A stretch of 37,809 bases of DNA, taken from IMG/VR virus record IMGVR_UViG_2602041644_000008, positions 1-37,809 of that record. One strand, written 5' to 3'. The DNA is from a virus. Lineage: Duplodnaviria > Heunggongvirae > Uroviricota > Caudoviricetes. Both the position numbers and the translations under genes were made by a program. Position 1 is the stretch's first letter. The number at the start of each line of letters is the position of its first letter. The notes below the pieces were generated by a model. It searched no databases, had not been told where the DNA came from, and was given only the letters and a program-made list of their open reading frames with translations. Of this stretch, positions 1,268 to 17,484 are shown piece by piece.

Positions 1268-1765
1268 TCAGTGCCACGATTTTTGCTTCTTCAGTGAATC
1301 GTATTGCTGTTCGCAGGATTCTCCTGCAATCCGATACTTTTCAGCCTCAGCTGCTGTTGCGTTGTAAACTCGGTTGCTTTCTTCAAGCATGTCGGCGAGC
1401 ACACCGATGACCTTGCTGGCTGGCGTGCCAGTGGGGAAAGATCCGGTATAGTGTTCGGCGAGTCGCTTGGTTTTGTCAAGCTCGGCGCGCAGGCTGTCAG
1501 CAGCGGCATTAGCATGCTCAGCATCAACACGCGCCACATCGATACGGGATTGTGCTTCACGTTCAATTTGTGTTTTCTCCTGATCACGTTGTGACCTGGC
1601 CTTATCATCAGCCTGTTTCTGATCTTCCTGTGCCTGCGCATACCCGGCGTCGTACTGACGACTGCCGTGTGCATTCCAGGCTACAACTCCTGATATGACC
1701 AGAACAGCAAGCATCGCCATGATAACCAACTGTTTCCAGTATGCTTTTGCGAATGCCCAGATCAT
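1268..1765 (-). CDS. i-spanin (Rz-like)
   Basis: N-terminal TM ([18 protein letters not shown]) followed by a charged coiled-coil. Overlaps the endolysin stop (ATGA). Last gene of the lysis cassette. Confidence 0.65.
1291..1539 (-). CDS. o-spanin (Rz1-like) embedded in the +1 frame of Rz
   Basis: Alternate frame within Rz encodes [17 protein letters not shown] with lipobox LLTAC, followed by a Pro-rich short lipoprotein; classic embedded Rz1. The start codon choice (M at 1539) is inferred. Confidence 0.5.
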   Translation of the reverse strand: MWRVLMLSMLMPLLTACAPSLTKPSDSPNTIPDLSPLARQPARSSVCSPTCLKKATEFTTQQQLRLKSIGLQENPANSNTIH

Positions 1766-2391
1766 ACCGCCAGCACCTTACTGGCAGTGATGTATCGCGC
1801 GCGCCGGTCATCAATGCCGTTCCGGCCACCATTGATAAGCAGAGTTACACGTGCAATATCTCCGGTATACTTCATGCAGCCTTTGCTGGAGAAGAACCAG
1901 GCCGCGCTACGAGCCGCGTATTCGTCCTGTGCCAGCAGTTCAGGATTCTCCAGCAGGTCAACTTTCAGACCGTTTCCGCAGTCACGATAGTTATTCAAAC
2001 CGGTAATCTGGATAAGCCCGCGCCCACGGTAATTCCAGCCATCGCCGGGAGCATTGTTACCCATGCGTTTGCTGTATACCAGATTTGCGATCGCGCGCTG
2101 GCGCTCAAGTGGCAATGGTGGTTCACCAGCGCGGCGCCCCAGTGCATTAGCCTGTCCCTGGGTGAGGCGTCCAGTCCGGACAAAGCTTGCCAGTCCGGTA
2201 ACGCTGTAGTTGAAATTCTCCTGCAACCTAGTGAACCCCCCAGACTCATGCCCAACTTGAGCAATAAACATTGCCTGATCTTCTGCTTTGCTGATACCAA
2301 ACTCTTTCATCGCAGAAGTTATATGCGAGAACCAGCGAGCGGCCAGCGCCTCGCTAATACCAGCAGCTCGCTGGAATTGTTTAATCTCCAT
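1762..2391 (-). CDS. Endolysin, glycoside hydrolase family 19 (chitinase-like lysozyme)
   Basis: GH19 motifs [12 protein letters not shown] and [15 protein letters not shown]. Confidence 0.8.
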
Positions 2392-3620: not shown

Positions 3621-5936
3621 TCATAAAATAGATTTCGTCTTTGTAACAATAATATCTACAAAATCACCTGCAGATATAGCTGATGGTACTGTATCTGCAA
3701 GAGTAATCTTTTCTGAAGAGATGTTTTGCACATCTAATAATTTATTTTCAACCCCATCCGTATATACCAATTTGACATCACTGAATGGAGGGTAATAAGT
3801 GACTGTTCCTTGGTATACATATATTTCAATGCCTGAAATTGATTTCACTACATACCTGCCCCTTACAAGATTAATTTTGAGTTCAGATAAATCGGTTTTA
3901 TAACAGGTAATTCCTGAACCAATGTTAGCCATACTAATATCAGTATCACTATAATAAGTAATTGCTTTTCCTTGTTTTAAGGTGAAGTTATCTTTGCTTT
4001 TCCTTGGCAAGGATGTGCTATTTTTGTAATATCTACCAGTTAAGCATAGCCATGAAAATGCAGTATTCGCTACATTACCACCAGAATACACAGCTAAACG
4101 AATTGCACTAACTGGAACCCCTTCATTATTAATCCTGATCTTAATGGAAGAAATGTTAGCAACAGTAGCATATCTATGGTTAGATGAATCCCATTGCATA
4201 GAAGAAGTTATTGCTTCTGTTTGTGAAGTTATGACATTCCCATCTCCATCTAATGCATACAGGTAAATGCGAAACGATGCCGTATCTGCTGAGAATGTAA
4301 ACATATCACCATTTCTTACTGGTACATCTCCAGATTCCCATAACAACCCAAAATTCCGCATAAAAGCAAACTTAGAAGAAACTAGGTGACGGATATTATA
4401 TAAACCATCTACATCTGTTTGATATGCTAATACACCAACTTCTCCATTGTTGGCACTGGATATAAATGGGGTGTTAGCATTTAAAGAAAACAATGTTACT
4501 TCATCGGATATATTTTCCTGAACATGAAATACTGCATTCCCCTTGCCATTATCAGTTACCTCTACATAAGTGTAAGGTGATGGATTGTATGGTTCATTTG
4601 TATAGTAAGGAGAACTTAACCATGAAGCCTCAATTGAGTTATTCCACGTATATTCACCAAAGTTAATTATCAACTGTTGGTTAGTTGGGGATGATGGATA
4701 TCGTTCAAAACGAAACCCGTAGAAGTAATTGTTATCACCTCTTTGAATATCAATTTTACCTGCCCCCTCCATAGTTCCACCATAAAACTTATTGTGGTTA
4801 TGATGATATGGATTATCAGCGAAAATTATATTATTCGTACGATTCAGATAAAAATAGTTTTCATTTATCCATCCGTTCTCAACTCCAAGAAAATGAATTG
4901 TATCGACCTTTTTCAGGTTAAAGGTTGAGTATGCTATTGAATAATCCGTCGATGCCACCGAAGCATTATAATTTGCATATAACTGTAAGTAGTCGCAACG
5001 CTCAATGTTTATATGCTGCCCTTTTGCCCCGATAATACGAATATCCGGTGTCGTTTCAGATGAAATACCAGAATTTCTGATAATCGTTCCGAAGTTTTGT
5101 CTTGGGTTGTTAGGGTTTGATGCATTCCCGCCAAGCAATACCCCTATTCCTGAGTGGGATATGGTAAAAACAGCATTGGTCATTTCGAGGCTGACATTAC
5201 GAAGATTTAATGTCTCCGTAATAATAAAATTACCTTCCGCTCGTAATGTTCTGGATGATTCTCGTGCATATTCTGCAGCCAGGATCAATGCAGATGTATC
5301 ATCTGTTATACCATCGCCTTTTGCCCCAAAATCGCAAACACTAACGGTGTCTCTCATCTTATCCTGGAACGTTCGGTATACTGCTCCAGAACCATACTGA
5401 ATAAACCAACCAAAACCACCAACAACCCCGGCGATTGCAGCATCGACATAATTACGCATTGAGCGATTATTTACAGCGTCCTGCTCAAGTGATGGATCTG
5501 CAAGGTTAGAAATTTTGTTTTGCTTTGCATCGTAATATTTTGCAAGCAAAGATGGTTTCATCAATGCACGTCTGAACCACCCAAAACATTGCTGGATCAG
5601 CATCGTCAGGTAGTCAAAAGCATCTTCATGCACTTCGGGGAAAAATTTTCCCTGATTGCGAAGATCTGTCTCCTGCACTACATCAAGCACACGATCTATC
5701 GTAATTCGCCAGCCAGCAGCAAGCGGAGACGGCAGAACCACTGAACCGCCACTATAAGTGCCCGCCCCAGTTACCGTATAACCGGTATCCAGAACCAATT
5801 CTGTTACGTTCCCGTTCAGGTCAGACACCTGAACAACCAGGTCTGATTTTCTGAAAATTCGAAAAGTATACGGAAACGATGTCGTAACGCCGTTACCTGT
5901 GTATTCGTTGTGGTCAACTTCGGTTGAGACCGTCAT
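3621..5936 (-). CDS. Tailspike/tail fibre: T7 gp17-like N-terminal adaptor domain plus right-handed beta-helix (pectate-lyase-3-like) depolymerase domain
   Basis: N-terminus EYTGNGVTTSFPYTF..DLVV..DY..LPSPL..DLRN matches the gp17 N-terminal pattern. Internal CDFGAKGDGITDDTSAL is a beta-helix motif. C-terminal two-thirds is AT-rich (receptor-binding module). Confidence 0.8.
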   Translation of the reverse strand: MTVSTEVDHNEYTGNGVTTSFPYTFRIFRKSDLVVQVSDLNGNVTELVLDTGYTVTGAGTYSGGSVVLPSPLAAGWRITIDRVLDVVQETDLRNQGKFFPEVHEDAFDYLTMLIQQCFGWFRRALMKPSLLAKYYDAKQNKISNLADPSLEQDAVNNRSMRNYVDAAIAGVVGGFGWFIQYGSGAVYRTFQDKMRDTVSVCDFGAKGDGITDDTSALILAAEYARESSRTLRAEGNFIITETLNLRNVSLEMTNAVFTISHSGIGVLLGGNASNPNNPRQNFGTIIRNSGISSETTPDIRIIGAKGQHINIERCDYLQLYANYNASVASTDYSIAYSTFNLKKVDTIHFLGVENGWINENYFYLNRTNNIIFADNPYHHNHNKFYGGTMEGAGKIDIQRGDNNYFYGFRFERYPSSPTNQQLIINFGEYTWNNSIEASWLSSPYYTNEPYNPSPYTYVEVTDNGKGNAVFHVQENISDEVTLFSLNANTPFISSANNGEVGVLAYQTDVDGLYNIRHLVSSKFAFMRNFGLLWESGDVPVRNGDMFTFSADTASFRIYLYALDGDGNVITSQTEAITSSMQWDSSNHRYATVANISSIKIRINNEGVPVSAIRLAVYSGGNVANTAFSWLCLTGRYYKNSTSLPRKSKDNFTLKQGKAITYYSDTDISMANIGSGITCYKTDLSELKINLVRGRYVVKSISGIEIYVYQGTVTYYPPFSDVKLVYTDGVENKLLDVQNISSEKITLADTVPSAISAGDFVDIIVTKTKSIL

Positions 5937-6390: not shown

Positions 6391-6412
6391 AGAAAAGGCC
6401 GCTAGAGCGGCC
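6391..6412 (-). terminator. Rho-independent terminator (mainly minus strand) after the 6412..7140 gene
   Basis: GGCCGC-TCTA-GCGGCC followed by TTTTCTTT on the minus strand. Confidence 0.5.
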
Positions 6413-7140
6413 TATCGTTTCGCTTTGTGCTCGTCCCAGCACGTTTTGCACCATGCCATTAAGCCATCCGCATTTTGATTATTAGGGTAAAAGCTGGTTC
6501 GTTTTCTGCGGACATTACAAATTGGGCACCACTTCATATGGCGTGTATTCTTTGGACCATCGAGACACCTTGCACACCACTTAGTCAATCCATCTGGATT
6601 TTTTGACGATTTCCTGAATTTTTCATATGGAAGGTTTATTCTGCATCGCAAGCACTGCTTGCTACCACTTGAAACTCTGTTAGCTGATTCTTCTTTTGGC
6701 GGCGATACAGAAGGTATTCTTGCTGGCTCTGATACTGCCTGAGGTGCTTTTTTAGATGACTGAGACGATATGTCATCACCAGGGAATCGTCCATGATATG
6801 CCGGACGCGTTGACACTCCAGGTGGAAGCTCTGCTGTAAATGGCTTTGGCTGAATCAGTTGCCTCTCTTTTGCTAACTCCTGCTGTTTATAATATGTCTG
6901 GATTACCGCACTATCATAAGCAGGAGGTGCGGAAATATTAGGCGCATTACCTCCAGTTTTTTGAAACTGAGTAGAGGTGTGTTCTATCACCTGTGTACGA
7001 TTAATCGTTATCTCCCCATCTTCGGTCTTTATCGTTTTGTTATGATTAACGACCGTACGATCAGAGATCTTAGTCTTGTTCTGGTTGATAACATAAATAA
7101 TCACCGCAACCACACCAACAACTATCCAGAAAACTTCCAT
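6412..7140 (-). CDS. Membrane-anchored protein with Pro/Ser-rich linker and C-terminal tandem CxxC zinc-ribbon repeats (unknown function)
   Basis: Strong RBS GAGGAAAAG. N-terminal TM FWIVVGVVAVIIYVI. C-terminus has two repeats: CLRCRINLPYEKFRKSSKNPDGLTKWCARC and CPICNVRRKRTSFYPNNQNADGLMAWCKTC. Low GC. Confidence 0.6.
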   Translation of the reverse strand: MEVFWIVVGVVAVIIYVINQNKTKISDRTVVNHNKTIKTEDGEITINRTQVIEHTSTQFQKTGGNAPNISAPPAYDSAVIQTYYKQQELAKERQLIQPKPFTAELPPGVSTRPAYHGRFPGDDISSQSSKKAPQAVSEPARIPSVSPPKEESANRVSSGSKQCLRCRINLPYEKFRKSSKNPDGLTKWCARCLDGPKNTRHMKWCPICNVRRKRTSFYPNNQNADGLMAWCKTCWDEHKAKR

Positions 7141-8357: not shown

Positions 8358-8684
8358 ATGACAAAACTTGGATTCGTGATGAGAGGTCCGGTAAGAAGCG
8401 GAACTCATGCAAAGCGTAGCAAGAGTCGTATTTTTACTGGTAAGGTTGTAGCACGTAAATCAGCTATTGGCTCGTTCAATAGTGAAAATGCGGCATTGCG
8501 CCATATTTTTATCAGCACAAAGCCAAGAGCATCCGCTGATGTGCATACAATGTCTATTCCTATCACAAAGAATATCAAGCGGATAAAAAAGCTCTCATCT
8601 GCAGAATCAAAAGAGATATCTTTCCGCCAGCTTAACTCATTAGAAACGCATATGAAGGAAGAGGAATTCGATGTTTTTGAGTGA
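8358..8684 (+). CDS. Basic 108-aa protein, first gene of a two-gene operon (putative antitoxin partner)
   Basis: RBS GGAGATTAAAG-ATG. Overlaps the downstream gene by 14 nt. No recognisable domain. Confidence 0.35.
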   Translation: MTKLGFVMRGPVRSGTHAKRSKSRIFTGKVVARKSAIGSFNSENAALRHIFISTKPRASADVHTMSIPITKNIKRIKKLSSAESKEISFRQLNSLETHMKEEEFDVFE

Positions 8685-9183
8685 GTATAGCGGGAAGGTT
8701 ATACCTACTGGTGAGTTTAAAACTGATGACTTTCTGATTTCGCTAAAAGATGCTTTTAAACAACACTGGCGTCATGGTCATCATCCTGATCTGGGAAAAG
8801 ATACTCTTTTTGAAAGACCAGACGAAGTATTAGGCTTCCATCTCAGAAAGGTTCATGTCAATATTGGTGAATATGCATCATATTCATACTCATGTACTGA
8901 ACAGTGTTGGGATGAGTGGTCATATGGATTGATTGATGAACAAGGAAATTACAGGCCAAAACCAACCAGTAACGCATATCTCATATATGCAGTCAATGAA
9001 ATAAGAGATGCAGCCTTACTAGCTTATTGGGACCCGCCCGCACACACCAAAGCTAACGCAAAAGTTTGGATGGATTCCGTATTGAATTTCACAAAATTAT
9101 TTCATGAACGAACTAATACAGCTCCACTTAGTAGAAATGTTTATCCGTGGGATTATTCGTACAAATCCAAAAAGCCTGCATAG
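8671..9183 (+). CDS. YafO-like toxin family protein (candidate type II TA toxin)
   Basis: RBS GGAAGAGGA. Segments HPDLGKDTLFERPDE, FHLRKVHVNIGE, NAYLIYAV and ALLAYWDPPAH parallel E. coli YafO motifs (LPDIFGRDALYDD, FERVAHIHLANE, AHLVYC, LLIAILKPEPH). Comparison is from memory only. Confidence 0.4.
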   Translation: MFLSEYSGKVIPTGEFKTDDFLISLKDAFKQHWRHGHHPDLGKDTLFERPDEVLGFHLRKVHVNIGEYASYSYSCTEQCWDEWSYGLIDEQGNYRPKPTSNAYLIYAVNEIRDAALLAYWDPPAHTKANAKVWMDSVLNFTKLFHERTNTAPLSRNVYPWDYSYKSKKPA

Positions 9184-9264
9184 TAGTTTTTTATGGACGA
9201 AACAAAAGTCAGTGCTACACTCATTGACGCCACATTGAGGTGGCTTATAGATGGAAATTTCACA

Positions 9265-9426
9265 ATGAAAAAAGCATTTGCTGCACTGTTCGTTTTGTTG
9301 TCTCTGGTAGCTTCAACTCAGGCCTTTGCCGGTCGTTGTCAGCACGACAGCGATACTGCCGCTGACGGCTCCCGCTGCGGTGGGCGTTCTGCGGATTCCC
9401 GCCCGGGCGGCGGTGGCATTCGTTAA
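9265..9426 (+). CDS. Small secreted peptide (signal peptide MKKAFAALFVLLSLVASTQAFA plus 31-aa Gly/Ser/Asp-rich part with 2 Cys)
   Basis: Internal ATG of tracked ORF 9193..9426. A 5-codon uORF (MEISQ, 9251..9268) with SD GAGGTGG overlaps this start as ATGA. Start site uncertain. Confidence 0.3.
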   Translation: MKKAFAALFVLLSLVASTQAFAGRCQHDSDTAADGSRCGGRSADSRPGGGGIR

Positions 9427-9455
9427 AAACAAGGCCGCGAAAGCGGCCTGTTTGA
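9425..9455. terminator. Bidirectional terminator between convergent genes
   Basis: AAAAACAA-GGCCGC-GAAA-GCGGCC-TGTTTG. Confidence 0.6.
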
Positions 9456-10307
9456 TCACTGTGCAGTTTTCGCTGATCGATTTTCAGCTCTAAATTCAAG
9501 AACCGTTTCAATATTTCTTTCCTTCAGCATATCAATAACATTTTTATTCACTTGACTATCACTGGTTAATAACTGGTAAACGTTGCTTCTCTCTTTATCA
9601 GAGTTTTCTTTAACAGCTGCTTTGCATGCCAAATGCTTATTGAAATTTTCTACATCGCTAGTACAGGAATTTACGGCTGCTGATGAAATATCAGACGCTG
9701 AAGAAACACCATCATCCAAACGTTTTATAGCATTTTCTATACATGAGTTAAGGGAATAAACGACAACTGAGCGATACCCTTCAGACGCACACCATTCTAA
9801 ATTTCTTGAAGGATCGAGTGGTTTTACTTCGCTGGATTGAATTAACTTGTCAAAAACTGACTTATATTCAATCTGTTTTTTATCTATAGCCCATACTTCA
9901 GTAGCTGATTTATAATTCCCCGTATGCCTATTAACATCAAATCCATGTTTTATAAGCAAATCTGCCCATGAAAGATTTATTGATTCATTGTTATGAGGCC
10001 ATTTTCCTGTCAGAACCGCCCCCATAGACCCCATATATCCGCCATATGATGGTATAGCACCATGGCTCAGTAACTTCTCAGCAACCACAGGGCAATTAAT
10101 TACATAAGAGGCGTAAAGCCCATTCCATAAAGCCCCTCTATAGTAATCGCCACGATTAGGTTCTTTTAAGTCGATAGCCTTTGATAATTGTTCACACGTT
10201 TTGCATGCATCAAAGTTATCCTTATTGCATTGCAATGAACTGGCAGCTGTAGGATTTACAGAGACTATTGAAAGCACTATGCCAAAAAACAAATTTATTT
10301 TTTTCAT
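9456..10307 (-). CDS. Secreted Cys-rich protein (283 aa) with ankyrin-like repeat signatures; last gene of the virion operon
   Basis: Signal peptide MKKINLFFGIVLSIVSVNPTAASS. 10 Cys. LLSHGAIP and LLIKHGFDVNRH resemble ankyrin repeat ends. Start is 1 nt after the stop of the gp16-like gene. Low GC. Confidence 0.5.
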   Translation of the reverse strand: MKKINLFFGIVLSIVSVNPTAASSLQCNKDNFDACKTCEQLSKAIDLKEPNRGDYYRGALWNGLYASYVINCPVVAEKLLSHGAIPSYGGYMGSMGAVLTGKWPHNNESINLSWADLLIKHGFDVNRHTGNYKSATEVWAIDKKQIEYKSVFDKLIQSSEVKPLDPSRNLEWCASEGYRSVVVYSLNSCIENAIKRLDDGVSSASDISSAAVNSCTSDVENFNKHLACKAAVKENSDKERSNVYQLLTSDSQVNKNVIDMLKERNIETVLEFRAENRSAKTAQ

Positions 10308-10308
10308 C

Positions 10309-13300
10309 CTATTTCATCTGCTCTTCAACTTTATTTAGTAATGGTGATATCGCCCACAGATTCTGAAAAGGTAGCATTTTACGGACAGCGTGGGTTTGCT
10401 GGCTGTCAAATTCTCCGTTAAGTACACCATTCGCAACCGTCGCGGCATCACCGCCAAGATCAAAGGTAGGACCAAGTAAAGCACCAATAGTATTACGACT
10501 CTGAAACCTTGATACCGGAGGCGCACCAAACATCGCGCCAAGACCAAACCTACCGCCGCTTATGTTCTCAACGGTATTCAGCGGCTCAGAGAGCCAGCCA
10601 AGCATTCCGCCCCGGTCGATCCCCTCTTTCACAAGGTTATTCCAGCTGTAGTCGATATCGCGACCGCTTAACTTCTGTTTCATCATATAGACCATTGAGC
10701 CAAGCGCAATCGTGCCAAGCGCACCAAGATAGAATGCAGCATCGCCCTGCTGGATACCAGATACTAGCACCCTGTTATGCTGTGCGAAGATAAACGTTTT
10801 GAACTGCGTGATCATCTTCCAGCCTTCTTTACTAAAAAACAGCGGTGTATCACCTACGCCAGGCGTTACAATCACTGAGTCTACATCTTTCAGCACTGCA
10901 GACTGGAAAATCTCTCTAGCGAAACGGTCATCCCACAGATGACTATGCCCGGTTAACAGCCCGTCCATATCCTCTCCGTGCTTCCCGAATTGCTCCCCGA
11001 TTCGGCGCAGAACATCTTCATTGATGCCGACCTGTGCCATCTTCCGCATTTCACTTTTGGAGAGCGTGCCACCAGCAGAAACTTGGCGAGCCGCGTCAAG
11101 TATCCTCGACTGCACTATCATCCCGGACCATGATTTAAGTGCGCTGTTCCACTGATTCATCAGCGTCCAGTTACCGAATTTCTGCGTCATCCAGTTCAGG
11201 CCTCGCTCAGCGGCGCTTCTCCGGCTATAGGGGTCAGTAAGATCCGCTATAGCCTTTGTACGCGTAGACAGGACATAATCAAGCCCAACGGCCATTTCTC
11301 GCAAATCCCTGGTTGCAATCTTCACTGAGTCCATATTTTTAAGCATGCTTACCATTGGTCCGAGAGATTTTCTCAGGCCATGCTGCATCATCGGTCGCAT
11401 CAGATCAGTTGCAGCGGAGACGGTCATTCCACCAAGCAAACGGAGGAAGTTAATATTCCTAGCAACTCGCCCGGCACGAACAAAGAAACTGCGTGGATCT
11501 TGAGGTGCGCCGTAAGTACCAAGCAGTCGGTCACGCATAGCCGTAATATCCCTAATATCAGCCTCCCGTTGCTTCTCAAGAGCTGCACGTCGTTTAGGTG
11601 TTTTAGCCTCTTTTATTAGCCGGGTATATTCCTCACTAACCTGACGGATTTGCTCCCCCATATCTTTACGGCCAAACTGCGCAGTCAGCTCAATTTCTGG
11701 CGCCACCTGCCGGAGATAACTTTCCATGATGTAGTTAACATCTGATTCAAGAAAATCTTCTATACGCTCATCAGGAATAAGCAGCGTTCGGCTTTTAGTG
11801 AAACCAGCCCGACCAACGAGTCTCTCTGGGATAATATCGGCTGGTACAAGCCCGGAAGGTGCGCCTATTATTTTATTCACGATCTCGTCAGCAGCGTCCT
11901 CTGCTTCCTCTCGGGATAGAGGCTCCATCTGCTTCAGTGCTCGCTCGCGGCTTGCATTCAGCCTTGTGGTTGAATTTGCCCGTTTTTGCAGTCGGCGAAG
12001 CTCAGAACGATATTTCCGTGGATTATCCAGCAACTCCATATGGCGCTGATAGACAGGAAGCTCACTCTTTGCCTGCGCTATATCATCAAGGCGAGTTTTA
12101 AGGTCAGAGCTTTCTTTCATCATTCTTGCCTGAAGTTTTTCTGATGAAGTCTCGGCCAACTCTTTTTCTATTCTTGTAAGACGCGCCTGTGTGTCAGTCT
12201 CCTGAGATATAAGCCTATTTCGTTTATCCAGTTCTTCCATGAGTAGAATTTTTTTACCAGACCATTTCTCCGCTTCAGCGATTTCACTAGCGAGAGCATC
12301 AGCGCGCAGTGCTGATTCCTCTGCAGTTTTTAGCAATGAATTTATCTTTTCAATTCGCTGACCTGCTTTGTCAGCACCTTTGGCACTAATCCCTTGTATC
12401 CAGTTGGCAATTCGCCCTCTGAATTCCGTGCGGTCGGAAAGTATCTTATCGAACTTATAAATGCGGGGAAGATAACTTTTCGCCGTCACGACATCGATAT
12501 CCTCAGGAAGGATCCCCAATTCCTGCATACGGGCTTTTGTGGTCTCAAAAATGGGGCGGATTCTGGCGGCTGCTTGTGAAACCTCAGGAATATCACTCTG
12601 ATCACCACGGCGCATAGCCATGCCAACAGCTTCATTGAAATCAATAAAGTTCATCCTCTTCACGCCGCGGGCGCTGACAGATTTGCTGTACTGCTGGTAA
12701 GCATCACGAGTAGCTTCCATCTGCTTATAAAGCATGGCGTCGTATTGCTTAATCTTAGTCTCGACTGCCGTAAACGTAGCCAACCCCTCATCATTTTTGG
12801 CGAAGAAATAGTTATTTTCGGCAAGCTGCTGGTTAATCTGACGGGAAACAAGAGATGGTGATTGCGCCAAGCGGCCAGCAGGAGTGACACTCAACGTTTT
12901 GTTAGCAAGTCCAAGTCCAGCGAGCTGTTCCTGATCGAGTGTGGTATTGAAAACCTGAGCTGCACCAATGCTTTGAGGAGAATCCATACCTCGCAAATGA
13001 TTACCTACTGAGTTAACCACTGCCTCGCGCGCGCTAGGTCCAGCAAGTAGCTGTGCACCAGCACCAAGGATCCCACCAACGAGAGCATCAACAACAACGT
13101 TCGATACGCTCTCCATCGGTGAGCGAGCTTCCTGAGTGGCCTGCAATGCGGCCTCTGAAGCAACACTGCCAGCAGCATTGGCTAAAGCAAAACGTCCGGC
13201 TGTTTCTGCAATACGACCGCCACGAACGACAGCGCCGAACGGAATAAACATAGAAATCGCATTGAATGGATCTGCTAATCTCATTGCTACAGAAGAGACT

Positions 13301-13698
13301 GTACCAGCAAATCCCAAGCCTGAATTGTATTCCATGTCAGCTCTCTGCTGATCGATTCGATGTTTAATTGCCATTGTTTCTTCAGGCGAACCGGAGTTGA
13401 TAAACGAATCTGCAAAATCTTCATAGCCTTTAATATCTGCTGCATCGTTATCAAATGGGTTATATCCTTCAACCCTGTCAAACTGACTGAAAGGAGCACT
13501 GGCAATAAAGCTACCCAGCGTGTTATCTATACGAAATGCTGCTTGTCTAGACCTTTGAACGCGTTGATCACTGGTAAATGGGTTCACAGCAGAAAGCAAA
13601 GAAGGTGTTTCCATATAGAAATTACTGTCATCAGGTGCTGCTATTTGCTGAATATCCTCGCCAAGCAACTCTTTAGGATCCTGTTCATATATCGGCAT
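10309..13698 (-). CDS. Internal virion/ejection protein, T7 gp16-like by position and size (1129 aa)
   Basis: Large protein following the gp14- and gp15-like genes in T7 order. Coiled-coil-rich middle. No motif verified. Confidence 0.55.
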   Translation of the reverse strand: MPIYEQDPKELLGEDIQQIAAPDDSNFYMETPSLLSAVNPFTSDQRVQRSRQAAFRIDNTLGSFIASAPFSQFDRVEGYNPFDNDAADIKGYEDFADSFINSGSPEETMAIKHRIDQQRADMEYNSGLGFAGTVSSVAMRLADPFNAISMFIPFGAVVRGGRIAETAGRFALANAAGSVASEAALQATQEARSPMESVSNVVVDALVGGILGAGAQLLAGPSAREAVVNSVGNHLRGMDSPQSIGAAQVFNTTLDQEQLAGLGLANKTLSVTPAGRLAQSPSLVSRQINQQLAENNYFFAKNDEGLATFTAVETKIKQYDAMLYKQMEATRDAYQQYSKSVSARGVKRMNFIDFNEAVGMAMRRGDQSDIPEVSQAAARIRPIFETTKARMQELGILPEDIDVVTAKSYLPRIYKFDKILSDRTEFRGRIANWIQGISAKGADKAGQRIEKINSLLKTAEESALRADALASEIAEAEKWSGKKILLMEELDKRNRLISQETDTQARLTRIEKELAETSSEKLQARMMKESSDLKTRLDDIAQAKSELPVYQRHMELLDNPRKYRSELRRLQKRANSTTRLNASRERALKQMEPLSREEAEDAADEIVNKIIGAPSGLVPADIIPERLVGRAGFTKSRTLLIPDERIEDFLESDVNYIMESYLRQVAPEIELTAQFGRKDMGEQIRQVSEEYTRLIKEAKTPKRRAALEKQREADIRDITAMRDRLLGTYGAPQDPRSFFVRAGRVARNINFLRLLGGMTVSAATDLMRPMMQHGLRKSLGPMVSMLKNMDSVKIATRDLREMAVGLDYVLSTRTKAIADLTDPYSRRSAAERGLNWMTQKFGNWTLMNQWNSALKSWSGMIVQSRILDAARQVSAGGTLSKSEMRKMAQVGINEDVLRRIGEQFGKHGEDMDGLLTGHSHLWDDRFAREIFQSAVLKDVDSVIVTPGVGDTPLFFSKEGWKMITQFKTFIFAQHNRVLVSGIQQGDAAFYLGALGTIALGSMVYMMKQKLSGRDIDYSWNNLVKEGIDRGGMLGWLSEPLNTVENISGGRFGLGAMFGAPPVSRFQSRNTIGALLGPTFDLGGDAATVANGVLNGEFDSQQTHAVRKMLPFQNLWAISPLLNKVEEQMK

Positions 13699-16445
13699 TA
13701 TTTGCCCCCTGCGTATATATTGCTCGGAAGGTAATTGGCTGAACCATAACCGAATGGTTTGGTCAGATCTGGAGGAGTATATCCATCTTTATTGCTGAAC
13801 TGCGGCAGCGGATTGCCTTCTCTCCGCACTCTAGCCTCATCAACACGCTGTTGCTGGAACTGAATGGTTTGCCTGTACATTGGAGATGTCAGCTGATCCG
13901 GCTTGAAACGAACAGGGAGACCATTTTCTCCAATATAATTTCTCGGTTCTATCGCTCCGTTTGCGTCAGGCTGTAAAACCATAACAGCATAACTCCTATC
14001 CCTTGCCGTAAGGCCATCAGAAACAAGTATTAAGTCCGTATCACTGCGAGGACCGCCAAAGGATTTTGATTTAAGCTCGCGTTTTTCCTGCTCCCACTGC
14101 CCCTGTATCCAGTTACCAGCACCATTATTTACTCCGTACAATGCCTCAGGTGCATACTTCATAACCTCTGCTTTGCCATTAACCGTAGAAACTCCCCAGG
14201 TGGTTCTGATCATGGCATTGGTCATTTTCTCAGCCTGTTCTGCATCGCCACCTGTCTGTACAAAGTTAGCATCGTAAATTGTCTGGTAATCTCGCTGATA
14301 GGCCGCATTTGATTTTCCTGGATCGGTAATATCCGGAGACCACGAACCAAAGGAAGTCAGACTGCTGGCGTTATTTTGTGCAGCAGTTGCCCTCGCCGCG
14401 ACATATTTTTTGTCTCGCATGGCAGTGGAAAGCATCTGTTTCATTCGGTCATCCTGTTGGAACACCTGGCTGTAAGCCATATCAACAGCCTTATCCTCCG
14501 GCACTCCAGCGCGGGAATAATCGTAAACCTTGCCGTAAAATGCCATCGTACTTTTATCAAGTGTTGCCGCTGCCGCCGGATTATTATCGAATAACTGACC
14601 GTAGAATTTTGCCATCGGGACAACCAGCGCAGGATCTCTTGATGTTGCTCCACTGTTAAGCATTGTTTTAACCTGAGTTGGTATCATGCCGCTTTTAGTT
14701 GTGACGGTGACCAGTGTATTGATGCTCTGCGGATCAGATATGGAAAACGAAGGCGCGATATCCTGCGCGAAATAACGGTCTACCGCTGCCTGATTGTTTT
14801 TGTCGTTCGGGTCCAGCGGGAAGTTATTTTGCATTGAAGACACGAACCTGTTTCTTCCCTGCTGAATCTCCCACTCCCTATCCATCTCTTTAAATTTGGC
14901 CTGCATTTTCTCCCAGCGTTGCTGGTTAGCTGCAAATCCAGGAGCGTTTGGATCCTGTGGACGTAAACGTTCAAGAATGTCTTGTCGTCCTTCTGGAGTG
15001 AGGTCTTTAGCGGCACCAATGACACCTCCATATTGTATCTGCGCCTGCATATCCTTCCACTTCATAGCGCCAATGCGCGGACCATTGGCCCGGATAAAAT
15101 CGTCCTCAGAAGGTAACTTCTCAGGTTTCAATCCTTCATCAAGGGCTGAATATGCATCTTTAACTACGGTGCTAAGCTGGTCCGCATACTGCTGGCGGTA
15201 CTGATTTCTCAGCTCATTAGCCTGCCTCAATGCCTGTATTTGCATTTGAGGGCTCATAGCATCAAATGCCGCATTGCCCGTATAACGCTTAGGTGAATCA
15301 AGGTTAGTTAGACCAAGGGCTGCCGAGATACCAGTTTCAAGCTGTTCGGTGCTATAAGGCATACTGCCATTTTCGTGTTTAATAATCCCAGCACATAAAG
15401 CAGCTAGTGTCTTTGGGTTAGAGATATCAAGCTGATCATTCTCCCCAACACCAAGCTCACCACACAATGCCCTAATATAAGCATCAGTATTATTACCATC
15501 ACTAGCCGGAGCATAGCGATTAACAATCTCGCTAACGGTGTCATAGCCTTGACGCTGGTAAGACAACATATTTTTACCCAACGCGCGGATTCCATGCTCA
15601 GGGGTAGCAAACGTTGCAAAACGTCCATCGCTACCGATCTGACCTTCCCACGGGTTAGATTTGCTCGCTTCAATATTACCAGGGTTATTATTACGTAAAC
15701 CACGAGCATCCAATGAATTACCATGTGATATTGCACGACTCACACCATCAAGATCCCCTGGCTCTCCATTAACCTGAAGAAACTCGTTGTATTTTTGAGC
15801 GATATTTCCTATCCATGCTTGCTGCCCCATTTGTTCCTTGAGCTGAGTTTTCTGCTGAACACGCCACTCATCAGGAAGCCCATGCGCATCAGCGTATTGA
15901 TCAATAGATTCAAATCGCTGCTTGGCTAAATCGACAAATGCTTGGTTATCGCTATATAGCCCCGCAGACTGAGTGACAGCCAATGCATTTCCTGACAAAT
16001 ACGTTTGATCTTGGAATTGCTGAAACTGCCCAACTTCATATCGACGTGCCTGATTGTAATAAGACTGCATAGACTGCTGGAGTTGAAAGGATAATTTATT
16101 CCTTTCCTCACTTTCAGGAATTGAGCCTAATAATGCCTGAGCCCTTTCCTGCATATTTTTCATAACAGCGTCACTCTGACCAAGAGCGTTTTTACCCTGT
16201 TTAGAAATCAGCCCACTTTCAGGGTTGTTAATCTGGTCATCTGCAAATTGGTTAAATTGCAGTAACGCCTCCTGGGCCATAGCAACATTCGCTTTCTGCC
16301 TGGCTTCACCATATGCCACCGCATACTGATCTGCGACATTCGCCAGCACCTGACCTGCTTGAGGAACATCGAAGATCTGAAAACCACCGGTTTGCACACC
16401 ACGACTTTGCACCTGGCGTCCGGATGTAGTAGGAACAACAGGCAT
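13698..16445 (-). CDS. Internal virion protein, T7 gp15-like by position (915 aa), with embedded conserved NNPGN-motif domain
   Basis: Residues about 245-365 are GLRNNNPGNIEASK..FATFATPEHGIRALGKNMLSYQRQGYDTVSEIVNRYAPASDGNNTDAYIRALC, a compact conserved-looking block. Confidence 0.55.
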   Translation of the reverse strand: MPVVPTTSGRQVQSRGVQTGGFQIFDVPQAGQVLANVADQYAVAYGEARQKANVAMAQEALLQFNQFADDQINNPESGLISKQGKNALGQSDAVMKNMQERAQALLGSIPESEERNKLSFQLQQSMQSYYNQARRYEVGQFQQFQDQTYLSGNALAVTQSAGLYSDNQAFVDLAKQRFESIDQYADAHGLPDEWRVQQKTQLKEQMGQQAWIGNIAQKYNEFLQVNGEPGDLDGVSRAISHGNSLDARGLRNNNPGNIEASKSNPWEGQIGSDGRFATFATPEHGIRALGKNMLSYQRQGYDTVSEIVNRYAPASDGNNTDAYIRALCGELGVGENDQLDISNPKTLAALCAGIIKHENGSMPYSTEQLETGISAALGLTNLDSPKRYTGNAAFDAMSPQMQIQALRQANELRNQYRQQYADQLSTVVKDAYSALDEGLKPEKLPSEDDFIRANGPRIGAMKWKDMQAQIQYGGVIGAAKDLTPEGRQDILERLRPQDPNAPGFAANQQRWEKMQAKFKEMDREWEIQQGRNRFVSSMQNNFPLDPNDKNNQAAVDRYFAQDIAPSFSISDPQSINTLVTVTTKSGMIPTQVKTMLNSGATSRDPALVVPMAKFYGQLFDNNPAAAATLDKSTMAFYGKVYDYSRAGVPEDKAVDMAYSQVFQQDDRMKQMLSTAMRDKKYVAARATAAQNNASSLTSFGSWSPDITDPGKSNAAYQRDYQTIYDANFVQTGGDAEQAEKMTNAMIRTTWGVSTVNGKAEVMKYAPEALYGVNNGAGNWIQGQWEQEKRELKSKSFGGPRSDTDLILVSDGLTARDRSYAVMVLQPDANGAIEPRNYIGENGLPVRFKPDQLTSPMYRQTIQFQQQRVDEARVRREGNPLPQFSNKDGYTPPDLTKPFGYGSANYLPSNIYAGGK

Positions 16446-17020
16446 CAGTAACCTCCTATTTTGAATCGGGAGTCAGAATTCATAAAACCTGAGTTAGATA
16501 ACATTGGCGTCCCACCACTAGATGTACTTCCTTTAGAGAACGGACTCCACGTCCCACCAAACATCTGGTACGCACCGTATGCCTTCAGAGGCGCAGTGAG
16601 TAAAGTTGTTGCTGCTCCCACATTCCCCTGTTTACGGGCTGAACTGGCTTCTGCTTTATAGTTGGCAGCCTGAACCTGATAACCGTAAGCCTCGCGTTGC
16701 GCGTTATTCACCGTCGTCAGAGAATCAAGAGCGCCAAACTGGGCAGTGTCGCCAAATATATCCAGCGCGTTACCTGTAGATAAATCAGCGCCGGTAGCCC
16801 CCATTGTCGCCGCCTGTGTACCAAGCCGCTGTCGGGTCTCTCTGCGCCGTTGCTCAGCTTCAGCGTTACCTCTGTTTATTGCATCATTTGCCTGAGCTGT
16901 GGCTATATCTGCGTTCGCTTCTGCAACCTTCGAGGCATACTTTCCCTGTTGGTACTGGGTGTATGCCTGAATGCCACTCATGGCGAGCATTGCGCCACCA
17001 GCAATAACCGGATCGCACAT
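16445..17020 (-). CDS. Internal virion protein B (T7 gp14-like)
   Basis: N-terminus MCDPVIAGGAMLAMSGIQAYTQYQ resembles T7 gp14 MCWAAAIPIAISGAQAISGQ. Length 191 aa versus 196 for gp14. Confidence 0.55.
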   Translation of the reverse strand: MCDPVIAGGAMLAMSGIQAYTQYQQGKYASKVAEANADIATAQANDAINRGNAEAEQRRRETRQRLGTQAATMGATGADLSTGNALDIFGDTAQFGALDSLTTVNNAQREAYGYQVQAANYKAEASSARKQGNVGAATTLLTAPLKAYGAYQMFGGTWSPFSKGSTSSGGTPMLSNSGFMNSDSRFKIGGY

Positions 17021-17484
17021 TATTTTCTCTCCATGTGAAATCTGTGGAAATTAAGACCAAGAGCACCATAAGGCGCGGCTTCTTCAAGCCTGAATCCAAG
17101 CCAGTGCAGCCATGCTTTGGCAACATGGTTTCGCTCGTCGACATAGTTTTCCAGGCGCGGATAAACTGCCAGCATCTGCTGCAATACAGGGCGGCAGTGG
17201 CGAAGAAATGTCTTCTGATATTTTTCGATACGGCTGGTTCCGACCAGCCAGGGCGTACCATTGCCACCGATCATTGACGCCGGAGATACGCCAAACATGG
17301 TTACCAGTTCTCCGTTCGCAAATCCTGACCAGGCCATAGTCGCAGTACGCAGACCAACACGCAGCGCATCTTCGGTAGTCATCAGTGATACCGCATACAG
17401 TTCGTCAATATCAGCCTGACGAACATCCGGCAAAATCATCTGAAGATGCTCTTCGGTTGCGGGAATAATTTGAACACCGATCAT
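17020..17484 (-). CDS. Virion-module protein (gp13 position), unknown function
   Basis: Position only, between the gp12-like and gp14-like genes. Confidence 0.35.
   Translation of the reverse strand: MIGVQIIPATEEHLQMILPDVRQADIDELYAVSLMTTEDALRVGLRTATMAWSGFANGELVTMFGVSPASMIGGNGTPWLVGTSRIEKYQKTFLRHCRPVLQQMLAVYPRLENYVDERNHVAKAWLHWLGFRLEEAAPYGALGLNFHRFHMERK

Follow-up and report, generated by a model that had tools for sequence, protein, structure and literature searches.

In a 37,809-nucleotide (nt) stretch of viral DNA (IMG/VR record IMGVR_UViG_2602041644_000008; the whole stretch is called the window here), which is essentially the genome of a temperate podophage, we examined ORF283, an open reading frame of 283 amino acids (aa) on the minus strand (9456..10307; ATG 10305-10307, stop codon 9456-9458) that forms the last gene of the late, ejection-protein operon. 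ORF283 is very probably an exported, non-structural accessory protein. Our favoured reading, to which we give a probability of roughly 0.45, is that it serves as a periplasmic binder, probably an inhibitor, of the Enc34/PHA02564-type muralytic domain in the gp15-like internal virion protein encoded by the same operon, and would thereby act as a superinfection exclusion or immunity factor. A first-pass annotation, made from the letters of this DNA, had already drawn attention to the reading frame, which is present on the minus strand with the length of 283 aa.

By inspection, the N-terminus of ORF283 consists of MKK, a 14-residue hydrophobic core (INLFFGIVLSIVSV) and NPTAASS, with small residues at positions -3 and -1. 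Hydropathy and this n-h-c layout predict a Sec signal peptide spanning residues 1 to ~23 (MKKINLFFGIVLSIVSVNPTAAS; 10239..10307, minus strand), which is the sole hydrophobic segment of the protein. An equivalent N-terminus is seen in every homologue and in every stand-alone relative of either of the domains described below, though the sequence itself is not conserved, and the signal peptide proposed in the first-pass annotation is thus retained as a prediction. The same annotation had counted ten cysteines where there are eight (C27, C35, C38, C72, C173, C189, C215 and C228); all eight are invariant in an alignment of 14 homologues reaching down to 39% identity (the alignment numbers residues one lower than ORF283 itself), and would probably form about four disulfides. 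Given the signal peptide, the eight invariant cysteines and the presence of signal peptides in stand-alone relatives of both domains, a periplasmic location is predicted. A lipoprotein was considered and rejected, since there is no lipobox and the first cysteine follows the predicted cleavage site by 2-3 residues.

A profile search of 1.84 billion representative proteins divides ORF283 into two families. Profile positions ~5-155 match stand-alone proteins of ~160 aa (E 1e-41 to 1e-24), all with signal peptides and the same four cysteines, and positions ~160-270 match other secreted proteins of 110-155 aa (E 1e-7 to 1e-3) that share the motif LDDG-ISPASDIA and one cysteine pair. Judged by these profile matches, ORF283 is a fusion of two secreted domain families, neither of which is in Pfam. 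The N-domain (residues ~24-165; 9813..10238, minus strand) is made of a Cys-rich cap (C27, C35, C38) and ~2.5 divergent ankyrin-like repeats, which hold C72 and the conserved loops WNGLY, GG..GSM and KWPHNN; the C-domain (residues ~169-283; 9459..9803, minus strand) is a helical bundle with a LDDG(V/I)S.ASDI motif and C173, C189, C215 and C228. Pfam, NCBIfam and PADLOC gave no match for ORF283, its homologues or either domain family, and the only PHROG match of ORF283 is family 6118 (annotated 'unknown function', E 5.5e-200). The protein is 99.6% identical to a hypothetical protein of Escherichia phage EC.W1-9, which was isolated as a podovirus, and the sole paper on that phage says nothing on the gene (bioRxiv 10.1101/2024.06.28.601134); no literature was found on the RefSeq accession of the protein either. 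ORF283 belongs to no described family. Its AlphaFold2 model is all-helical with a mean predicted local distance difference test score (pLDDT) of 78; residues 1-22 are unstructured (pLDDT <50), the repeat-like N-terminal half reaches 55-85 and the C-terminal bundle exceeds 90. The C-domain profile found no match in the PDB and only a few unnamed proteins in a word-indexed search, and a likeness of this domain to LprI/DUF1311 was dropped because Pfam gave no match at E <= 10.

A relationship of the N-domain to ankyrins is supported at the level of profiles, which agrees with the ankyrin-like repeat endings noted in the first-pass annotation. Both strings are present, LLSHGA at residues 79-84 and LLIKHGFDVNRH at residues 117-128, and K78, L79, L80, G83, A84, L118 and K120 are invariant in the homologues. 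None of the Pfam Ank models matches any of 14 family members even at E <= 10, and one stand-alone relative reaches a Pfam Ank model at E 0.013, below the cut-off. The N-domain profile, compared with the PDB, matches almost exclusively ankyrin and DARPin proteins (best E 2.9e-4); hhalign aligns it with a DARPin at 89% probability over 85 columns, in register, covering two repeats and a cap; and canonical multi-ankyrin proteins are among those matched by the full-length profile in the 1.84 billion sequences (E 1e-9). Such profile similarities support a kinship of the N-domain with ankyrins.

The presumed target is encoded in the same operon. Upstream of ORF283 on the minus strand lies a complete ejection module, comprising the genes for the gp14-like 191-aa and the 154-aa internal virion protein (16445..17484; PHROG 418 and 308), the 915-aa gp15-like internal virion protein (13698..16445; PHROG 1044, 873 and 7182, 'tail injection transglycosylase') and the 1129-aa gp16-like internal virion (ejection) protein (10309..13698; PHROG 342 'internal virion protein', E 4e-233), the last of these being syntenic in all relatives. 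Residues ~240-400 of the gp15-like protein (15246..15728, minus strand; RNNNPGNI ... HENG) match the catalytic domain of the Hafnia phage Enc34 endolysin (PDB 7q47, PHA02564; E 1.7e-16) as well as the N-terminus of the 1295-aa Gp29 (9vvp_L, E 1e-35). The PHA02564 hidden Markov model (HMM) matches the gp15-like protein at E 1e-85, and HENG aligns with the catalytic-Glu motif of Enc34, a domain of lysozyme-like alpha-lobe fold for which muralytic activity has been shown experimentally (PMC8943055). In every relative examined, ORF283 is found two genes downstream of the gene for this muralytic domain. Because the ejectosome uses a muralytic domain to cross the cell wall, the gp15-like domain would be the natural target of ORF283 in the phage. 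A domain of the same type occurs in another role in a Morganella morganii prophage (L002; loci are cited by our L numbers), where a 158-aa Enc34/PHA02564-type protein (12247..12723; HMM E 6.5e-31) follows two holin genes, and this relative apparently uses the PHA02564 domain both in its gp15-like protein and as its endolysin.

The N-domain is coupled to the same enzyme class outside the ejection module. Stand-alone N-domain loci were taken from species-representative genomes, metagenomes and viral contigs, the genome scan being run with an eight-sequence alignment; many of the genes come from Bdellovibrionota-like genomes or metagenome-assembled genomes (MAGs). In seven loci (L013, L014, L015, L096, L099, L102 and L103) a PHA02564 gene abuts the N-domain gene, with an overlap or a few bases between them, and in L012 the N-domain gene lies 3.2 kb from a gene whose product, a tape-measure-like minor-tail protein of a phage, ends in a PHA02564 domain. 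The association is thus seen in eight of the ~15 loci with usable flanks in the HMM scan, and the PHA02564 HMM, run over the flanks of all stand-alone N-domain loci, had no match outside these eight. The neighbours in L013 and L014 carry RNxNPGN(I/M) ... YAPA ... E-G and represent the same domain as gp15-like residues ~240-400. The enzyme gene may be upstream, downstream or convergent, and three partner architectures could be distinguished: a fusion with DUF3892, a His-rich tail and the C-terminus of a tail protein. Paired N-domains are 34-57% identical to one another, except for those of L013 and L015 (84%), and the partner enzymes are 31-67% identical outside this near-duplicate pair (93%); N-domains and partner enzymes fall into the same groupings. 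The N-domain proteins carry a signal peptide and the partner enzymes no evident one. A signal-peptide protein beside a signal-less peptidoglycan hydrolase, in variable order and in diverged lineages, is by analogy the signature of an inhibitor or immunity pair, and conserved genetic linkage to the gene of a cognate hydrolase, as expected for immunity proteins, was found.

Several further arrangements were seen among these genes. The proteins with an N-terminal PHA02564 domain and a C-terminal DUF3892 (L013 6473..7258, minus; L014 5342..6001, plus; L015 4842..5507, minus; L103 72..830, plus) are small and without signal peptides and give DUF3892 a cell-wall-related context; to our knowledge, this architecture has not been described before. 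N-domain genes also neighbour a secreted M15 peptidase gene (L018) and a weak GH24-like lysozyme match (L097). A metagenomic protein of 480 aa (P0054) is a natural fusion of the N-domain with the YbgF/CpoB tetratricopeptide repeat (TPR) domain of the Tol-Pal system (TIGR02795, E 3e-32), which may be a further hint of N-domain action at the interface of cell wall and outer membrane. The N-domain homologue of Marinobacter suaedae (L017, 6001..6458) is a pseudogene with in-frame stops and a frameshift. A distant N-domain subfamily from Burkholderiaceae MAGs and metagenomes (L111-L118) has YWENRNP in place of KWPHNN, and its neighbourhood is strictly conserved with genes for a Lon-like protease, Usp, a PHB-depolymerase-type esterase and a pyridoxal-dependent decarboxylase. 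As the flanks of L111-L118 contain neither a PHA02564 gene nor another muralytic partner, the muralytic coupling is specific to the subfamily of ORF283 (WNGLY/WPH).

Stand-alone C-domain genes (L107, L108 and L109) are likewise prophage genes, with no PHA02564 gene nearby. In L108 (1614..2843) and L109, a repressor gene of CI/LexA type (HTH_3 + Peptidase_S24) is followed on the same strand, after 64 nt, by the C-domain gene, which stands opposite a Cro-like gene; rexAB is similarly placed beside cI in lambda. The C-domain gene of L107 comes after that of a lipoprotein, within an accessory region bounded by the tail fibre and lysis genes on one side and the integrase on the other. These positions are typical of genes that protect the lysogen.

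The position of ORF283 itself is conserved across genera. Homologues share 84-89% identity in Klebsiella, 58% in Serratia and ~40% in Morganella and Providencia, and in the prophages of all these genera, as in E. coli, the gene always directly follows the gp16-like gene. Between the E. coli and Morganella versions, identity is 54% for gp14, 44% for gp15, 55% for gp16 and 41% for the ORF, and between those of E. coli and Serratia it is 46%, 57%, 79% and 61%, respectively. ORF283 has co-diverged with the ejection module across five genera. Sibling phages without ORF283 carry other cargo in its place: homology with them ends exactly at the gp16 stop codon and resumes at the terminator right after the ORF283 stop codon, so that ORF283 is an exact swap-in cargo between these two points. 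The other occupants of this slot include a 204-aa cytoplasmic protein (L007, 8400..9014; PHROG 3383) and a pair of 149 aa and 146 aa (L009, 4076..4525 and 4538..4978; PHROGs 9944 and 8772), and none of these PHROGs is annotated with a function. The G+C content of ORF283 is low, as the first-pass annotation had remarked: it amounts to 36.9%, while the gp16-like gene has 48.2% and the window as a whole 47.8%, and it is likewise low in homologues (35% versus 52% in Morganella, 40% versus 53.5% in Serratia).

The junction between the gp16-like gene and ORF283 reads ...CAG ATG AAA TAG G ATG AAA AAA on the minus strand, with the gp16-like stop codon TAG (10309-10311) and one spacer base (10308) preceding the ATG (junction 10308..10311), exactly as the earlier annotation had it. 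Because the only Shine-Dalgarno-like AGGA adjoins the ORF283 ATG, translation in E. coli probably depends on termination-reinitiation. The translational coupling claimed from this spacing applies to the version of E. coli and Klebsiella, and does not extend to Morganella, where the spacer is 31 nt and the gene has its own GAGG, or to Serratia, where the spacer is 11 nt; co-transcription rather than the 1-nt spacing is what is conserved across genera. The gene also ends, as had been stated, at the intrinsic terminator of the late operon (9422..9449, minus strand), with a hairpin AGGCCGC-TTTC-GCGGCCT followed by a T-run. This GC-rich 7-bp hairpin (9449..9432, minus strand), followed by TGTTTTT, begins 6 nt past the ORF283 stop codon, and the terminator is common to ORF283 and a convergent ORF of 53 or 77 aa arranged tail-to-tail with it. 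Searched with a promoter tool and also under looser criteria, the 3' end of gp16 showed sites resembling a promoter for ORF283 no more often than shuffled sequence did. Since homology with the sibling phages stops exactly at the gp16 stop codon, the ORF283 cassette contains no upstream DNA of its own.

From these observations we infer the following scenario. As the final cistron of the operon for ejection proteins, ORF283 would be made late, exported by Sec, and folded in the periplasm with about four disulfides. Its N-domain would be dedicated to muralytic domains of the Enc34/PHA02564 type, which it would bind and most likely inhibit stoichiometrically; in this phage the target would be the muralytic domain of the ejected 915-aa gp15-like protein. 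With the enzyme occupied in the periplasm, incoming virions of the same or a related phage could not cut the cell wall to assemble their DNA conduit, which would result either in superinfection exclusion or in protection against lysis-from-without. The C-domain would provide a second phage-borne periplasmic module. The first-pass annotation had offered four roles for the protein. Those of a periplasmic effector and of a superinfection-exclusion factor fit best with the coupling of N-domain and PHA02564 and with the presence of the domain in the gp15-like protein; those of a virion-injected effector and an injected anti-defence protein find no support, as the producer cell's periplasm is indicated by the Sec signal, by the probable formation of four disulfides and by stand-alone relatives that are all secreted.

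Several observations weigh against an inhibitor of the gp15-like domain, and the scenario should be interpreted with caution. The link amounts to guilt by association in the sequence record, and the gp16-like gene separates ORF283 from the gp15-like gene. A promoterless cassette may be silent in lysogens, where exclusion pays most. In Morganella the endolysin is itself of the PHA02564 type, and an indiscriminate inhibitor would antagonise the phage's own lysis; this may demand specificity or low dosage, or may point to a role in regulating lysis. About half of the informative stand-alone loci have no PHA02564 neighbour, and the distant Burkholderiaceae subfamily stands in a conserved housekeeping context without one. 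Close relatives swap ORF283 for unrelated cargo yet keep the muralytic domain, which indicates that ORF283 is dispensable. The AlphaFold2 model of the N-domain is moderately confident and has no significant structural neighbour, a Foldseek search of the ORF283 model against the PDB and BFVD having returned none at E <= 0.001. Finally, the role of the C-domain is left unexplained by the inhibitor model.

Other roles were weighed against the same evidence. Since the stand-alone pairs look like chromosomal effector/immunity cassettes, many of them from Bdellovibrionota-like MAGs, ORF283 could be a prophage-borne orphan immunity protein that protects the lysogen not from phages but against PHA02564 toxins of competitors, such as type VI secretion system (T6SS) effectors, or against predators that invade the periplasm. 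Precedents are an Enc34-like effector domain of a T6SS, accompanied by immunity proteins that carry signal peptides (PMC13340143), and the Bdellovibrio self-protection protein Bd3460 (PMC4686830). Around the examined pairs we recognised no T6SS genes, apart from an ambiguous ClpB/ClpV-like ATPase in L102. Orphan immunity would need expression in the lysogen, whereas the cassette is promoterless and at the end of a late operon, and its fixed place behind gp16 and its divergence in step with the ejection module point to a partner within the phage; we regard this role as unlikely. Gene pairing alone does not tell inhibition from activation, and ORF283 might instead be a regulator, positive or of timing, that binds enzymes of the PHA02564 type or the cell wall and buffers leaked or holin-released lysin or localises the enzyme. 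Its expression is inferred to be late, together with the lysis and structural genes, and the Morganella relatives have a PHA02564-type endolysin plus an N-domain protein. Yet the E. coli and Serratia phages, with GH19-like and T4-type endolysins, keep ORF283 nonetheless, a signal-less enzyme beside a signal-peptide partner is the layout typical of inhibitors, and we know of no precedent for an ankyrin-type activator of a phage lysin, so that such a regulator appears improbable. Part of the evidence would also suit a periplasmic accessory protein unrelated to muralytic enzymes that acts in receptor or O-antigen assembly, on Tol-Pal or in another envelope process: roughly every second stand-alone N-domain locus is without a PHA02564 neighbour, a YbgF/CpoB TPR domain is joined to the N-domain in one relative, the C-domain family has no enzyme partner, and the phage has an O-antigen-type tailspike yet no recognisable seroconversion genes. 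Nothing specific supports such a target, however, and with a PHA02564 pairing in seven diverged loci that is hard to attribute to chance, a role of this kind seems doubtful.

The prophage is common in extra-intestinal pathogenic E. coli (ExPEC; IHE3034, APEC O18, ST95, ST131), and a phage-encoded ankyrin-like protein with a signal peptide brings to mind a secreted effector against a eukaryotic host, a virulence factor of lysogenic conversion like ANKp of a sponge-symbiont phage, which is described as acting on eukaryotic immune cells (bioRxiv 10.1101/608950). Such an effector is very unlikely here, given that Sec export alone ends in the periplasm, that there is no promoter for expression in the lysogen, that the ankyrin similarity is marginal, and that the stand-alone relatives come from predators and from bacteria of soil and fresh water, where they neighbour cell-wall enzymes rather than lying in host-associated effector islands. 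ORF283 has the ankyrin character and the signal peptide in common with ANKp, but its relatives associate with enzymes of the bacterial cell wall, and its repeats stay below the Pfam threshold. Hardly credible is a protein packaged in the virion and injected with the ejection proteins, whether as anti-defence cargo or as a structural component. Co-transcription with the internal virion genes, translational coupling in E. coli and a conserved position in relatives would agree with packaging. Phage capsids, however, assemble in the cytoplasm, and export would take ORF283 out of the compartment in which the procapsid is built; the protein has a predicted cleavable signal peptide and eight invariant cysteines, all of its relatives are secreted, its only PHROG match is the family 6118 already mentioned, and the unrelated cargo found in its place in siblings shows that it is no essential structural part.

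The surroundings of ORF283 are organised as follows. The minus-strand order is an 823-aa tail protein, the internal virion proteins of 154, 191, 915 and 1129 aa, ORF283 and the terminator; past the terminator comes an accessory region with convergent genes, and then the tailspike and the lysis cassette. The accessory region encodes the 53/77-aa secreted peptide, a YafO-like toxin, a Bro-N/Ant antirepressor and a 242-aa membrane protein, and the layout resembles the P22 region gene 16 - sieA - immI - gene 9. The small secreted or membrane-anchored peptide (9193..9426, plus strand; MKKAFAALFVLLSLVASTQAFA followed by GRCQ...), with a likely true start at M25 (9265), converges on the ORF283 terminator and matches PHROG 14503 ('membrane associated protein'); unlike ORF283, it occurs in ~490 complete E. 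coli genomes at >=96% nucleotide identity, in many different prophages. A 108-aa ORF (8358..8684, plus strand; PHROG 5933, annotated 'unknown function') overlaps one of 170 aa (8671..9183, plus strand) that is YafO-like (Pfam E 9.5e-4, below the cut-off) and named a YafO-family toxin in RefSeq, and the two possibly form a toxin-antitoxin pair. The 242-aa protein (6412..7140, minus strand) carries a transmembrane helix at its N-terminus and two Cys-rich, zinc-ribbon-like motifs at its C-terminus; over its full length it matches PHROG 6762 (annotated 'unknown function'), and its matches to Stc1, endonuclease VII and Lar-like PHROGs are weak. The lysis genes lie at 1268-2689 and encode a holin, a GH19-like endolysin (1762..2391) and an Rz-like protein; with this set in place, the notion of ORF283 as a part of the lysis cassette was dropped.

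Periplasmic neutralisation of a virion-borne or effector lysin is known in kind; the fold family, the enzyme class and the genomic arrangement of the mechanism proposed here would be new. The closest parallel in logic is Spackle (Sp, gp61.3) of phage T4, a periplasmic inhibitor of the gp5 tail-lysozyme that brings about superinfection exclusion (PMC7677548). Spackle is phage-encoded, exported by a signal peptide, and neutralises the muralytic domain of the virion's own envelope-penetrating protein, as is proposed here for ORF283. No relationship in sequence or fold was detected between the two, however, nor do they share a PHROG or Pfam family; the T4 protein is small, has a single domain, is made early by a lytic myovirus and targets a T4-type lysozyme, whereas ORF283 is a two-domain, ankyrin-like, late-operon protein of a temperate podophage with a presumed Enc34/PHA02564 target. 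Bd3460 of Bdellovibrio is a periplasmic ankyrin self-protection protein that binds and inhibits the neighbouring DD-endopeptidases (PMC4686830), and thus a signal-peptide ankyrin protein encoded beside its peptidoglycan hydrolase, as in the pairs of N-domain and PHA02564. It differs in being, by description, a canonical ankyrin protein with a DD-endopeptidase target, whereas the N-domain is Cys-stabilised, highly divergent and paired with a glycosidase-type Enc34 domain. The pairs also share a layout with Tai5a and Tai5b, the signal-peptide immunity proteins beside the Enc34-like Tae5 in a T6SS of Stenotrophomonas rhizophila (PMC13340143), namely a signal-peptide protein adjoining a signal-less Enc34-like domain.

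Among the temperate podophages, P22 has SieA, which targets, at the inner membrane, the conduit formed by the ejection proteins of superinfecting relatives (PMC10883804) and is likewise encoded in an accessory region between ejection-protein and tailspike genes. SieA, a protein of the inner membrane, has three transmembrane segments and no signal peptide, and is transcribed from its own promoter on the opposite strand. ORF283, in contrast, is predicted to be soluble and periplasmic, lies on the strand of the late operon, is promoterless, and is unrelated in sequence; the polytopic inner-membrane topology and the promoter active in the lysogen that characterise a SieA-type protein were not found in it. 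ORF283 further resembles phage morons, such as HK97 gp15 or lambda lom and bor, in its aberrantly low G+C content, unlike that of its neighbours, its presence/absence polymorphism among close relatives, its insertion at a gene boundary of the late region and the terminator that follows it. Of the promoter and terminator that a moron would bring along, ORF283 has the terminator and not the promoter, and it departs from morons also in having stayed with the same module across five genera.

In a wider scenario, which we put forward tentatively, the N-domain may represent an undescribed, widespread, disulfide-stabilised and ankyrin-derived family of periplasmic immunity proteins specific for Enc34/PHA02564 muramidases. 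It would be used beside effector-like lysins, notably in Bdellovibrionota-like organisms, and a lineage of temperate enterobacterial podophages would have fused it to a second phage-borne periplasmic module and turned the fusion against the muralytic domain in the ejectosome of their own kind, a new, ejectosome-directed way of excluding superinfection. We know of no inhibitor described for the muralytic domain of an ejection protein. Among short-tailed temperate phages, a presumed block of DNA injection has been studied in SieA of P22 alone (PMC10883804), and if ORF283 inhibits the gp15-like domain, it would add a second, periplasmic mechanism of exclusion. A function would then be assigned to two secreted domain families without a Pfam entry, and a natural protein inhibitor would be at hand for Enc34-type lysins, which are considered as antibacterial enzymes (PMC8943055). 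Because the gene occurs in ~2% of complete E. coli genomes, ExPEC lineages included, and in Klebsiella prophages, ORF283 could also affect which hosts are open to therapeutic phages relying on the same enzyme.

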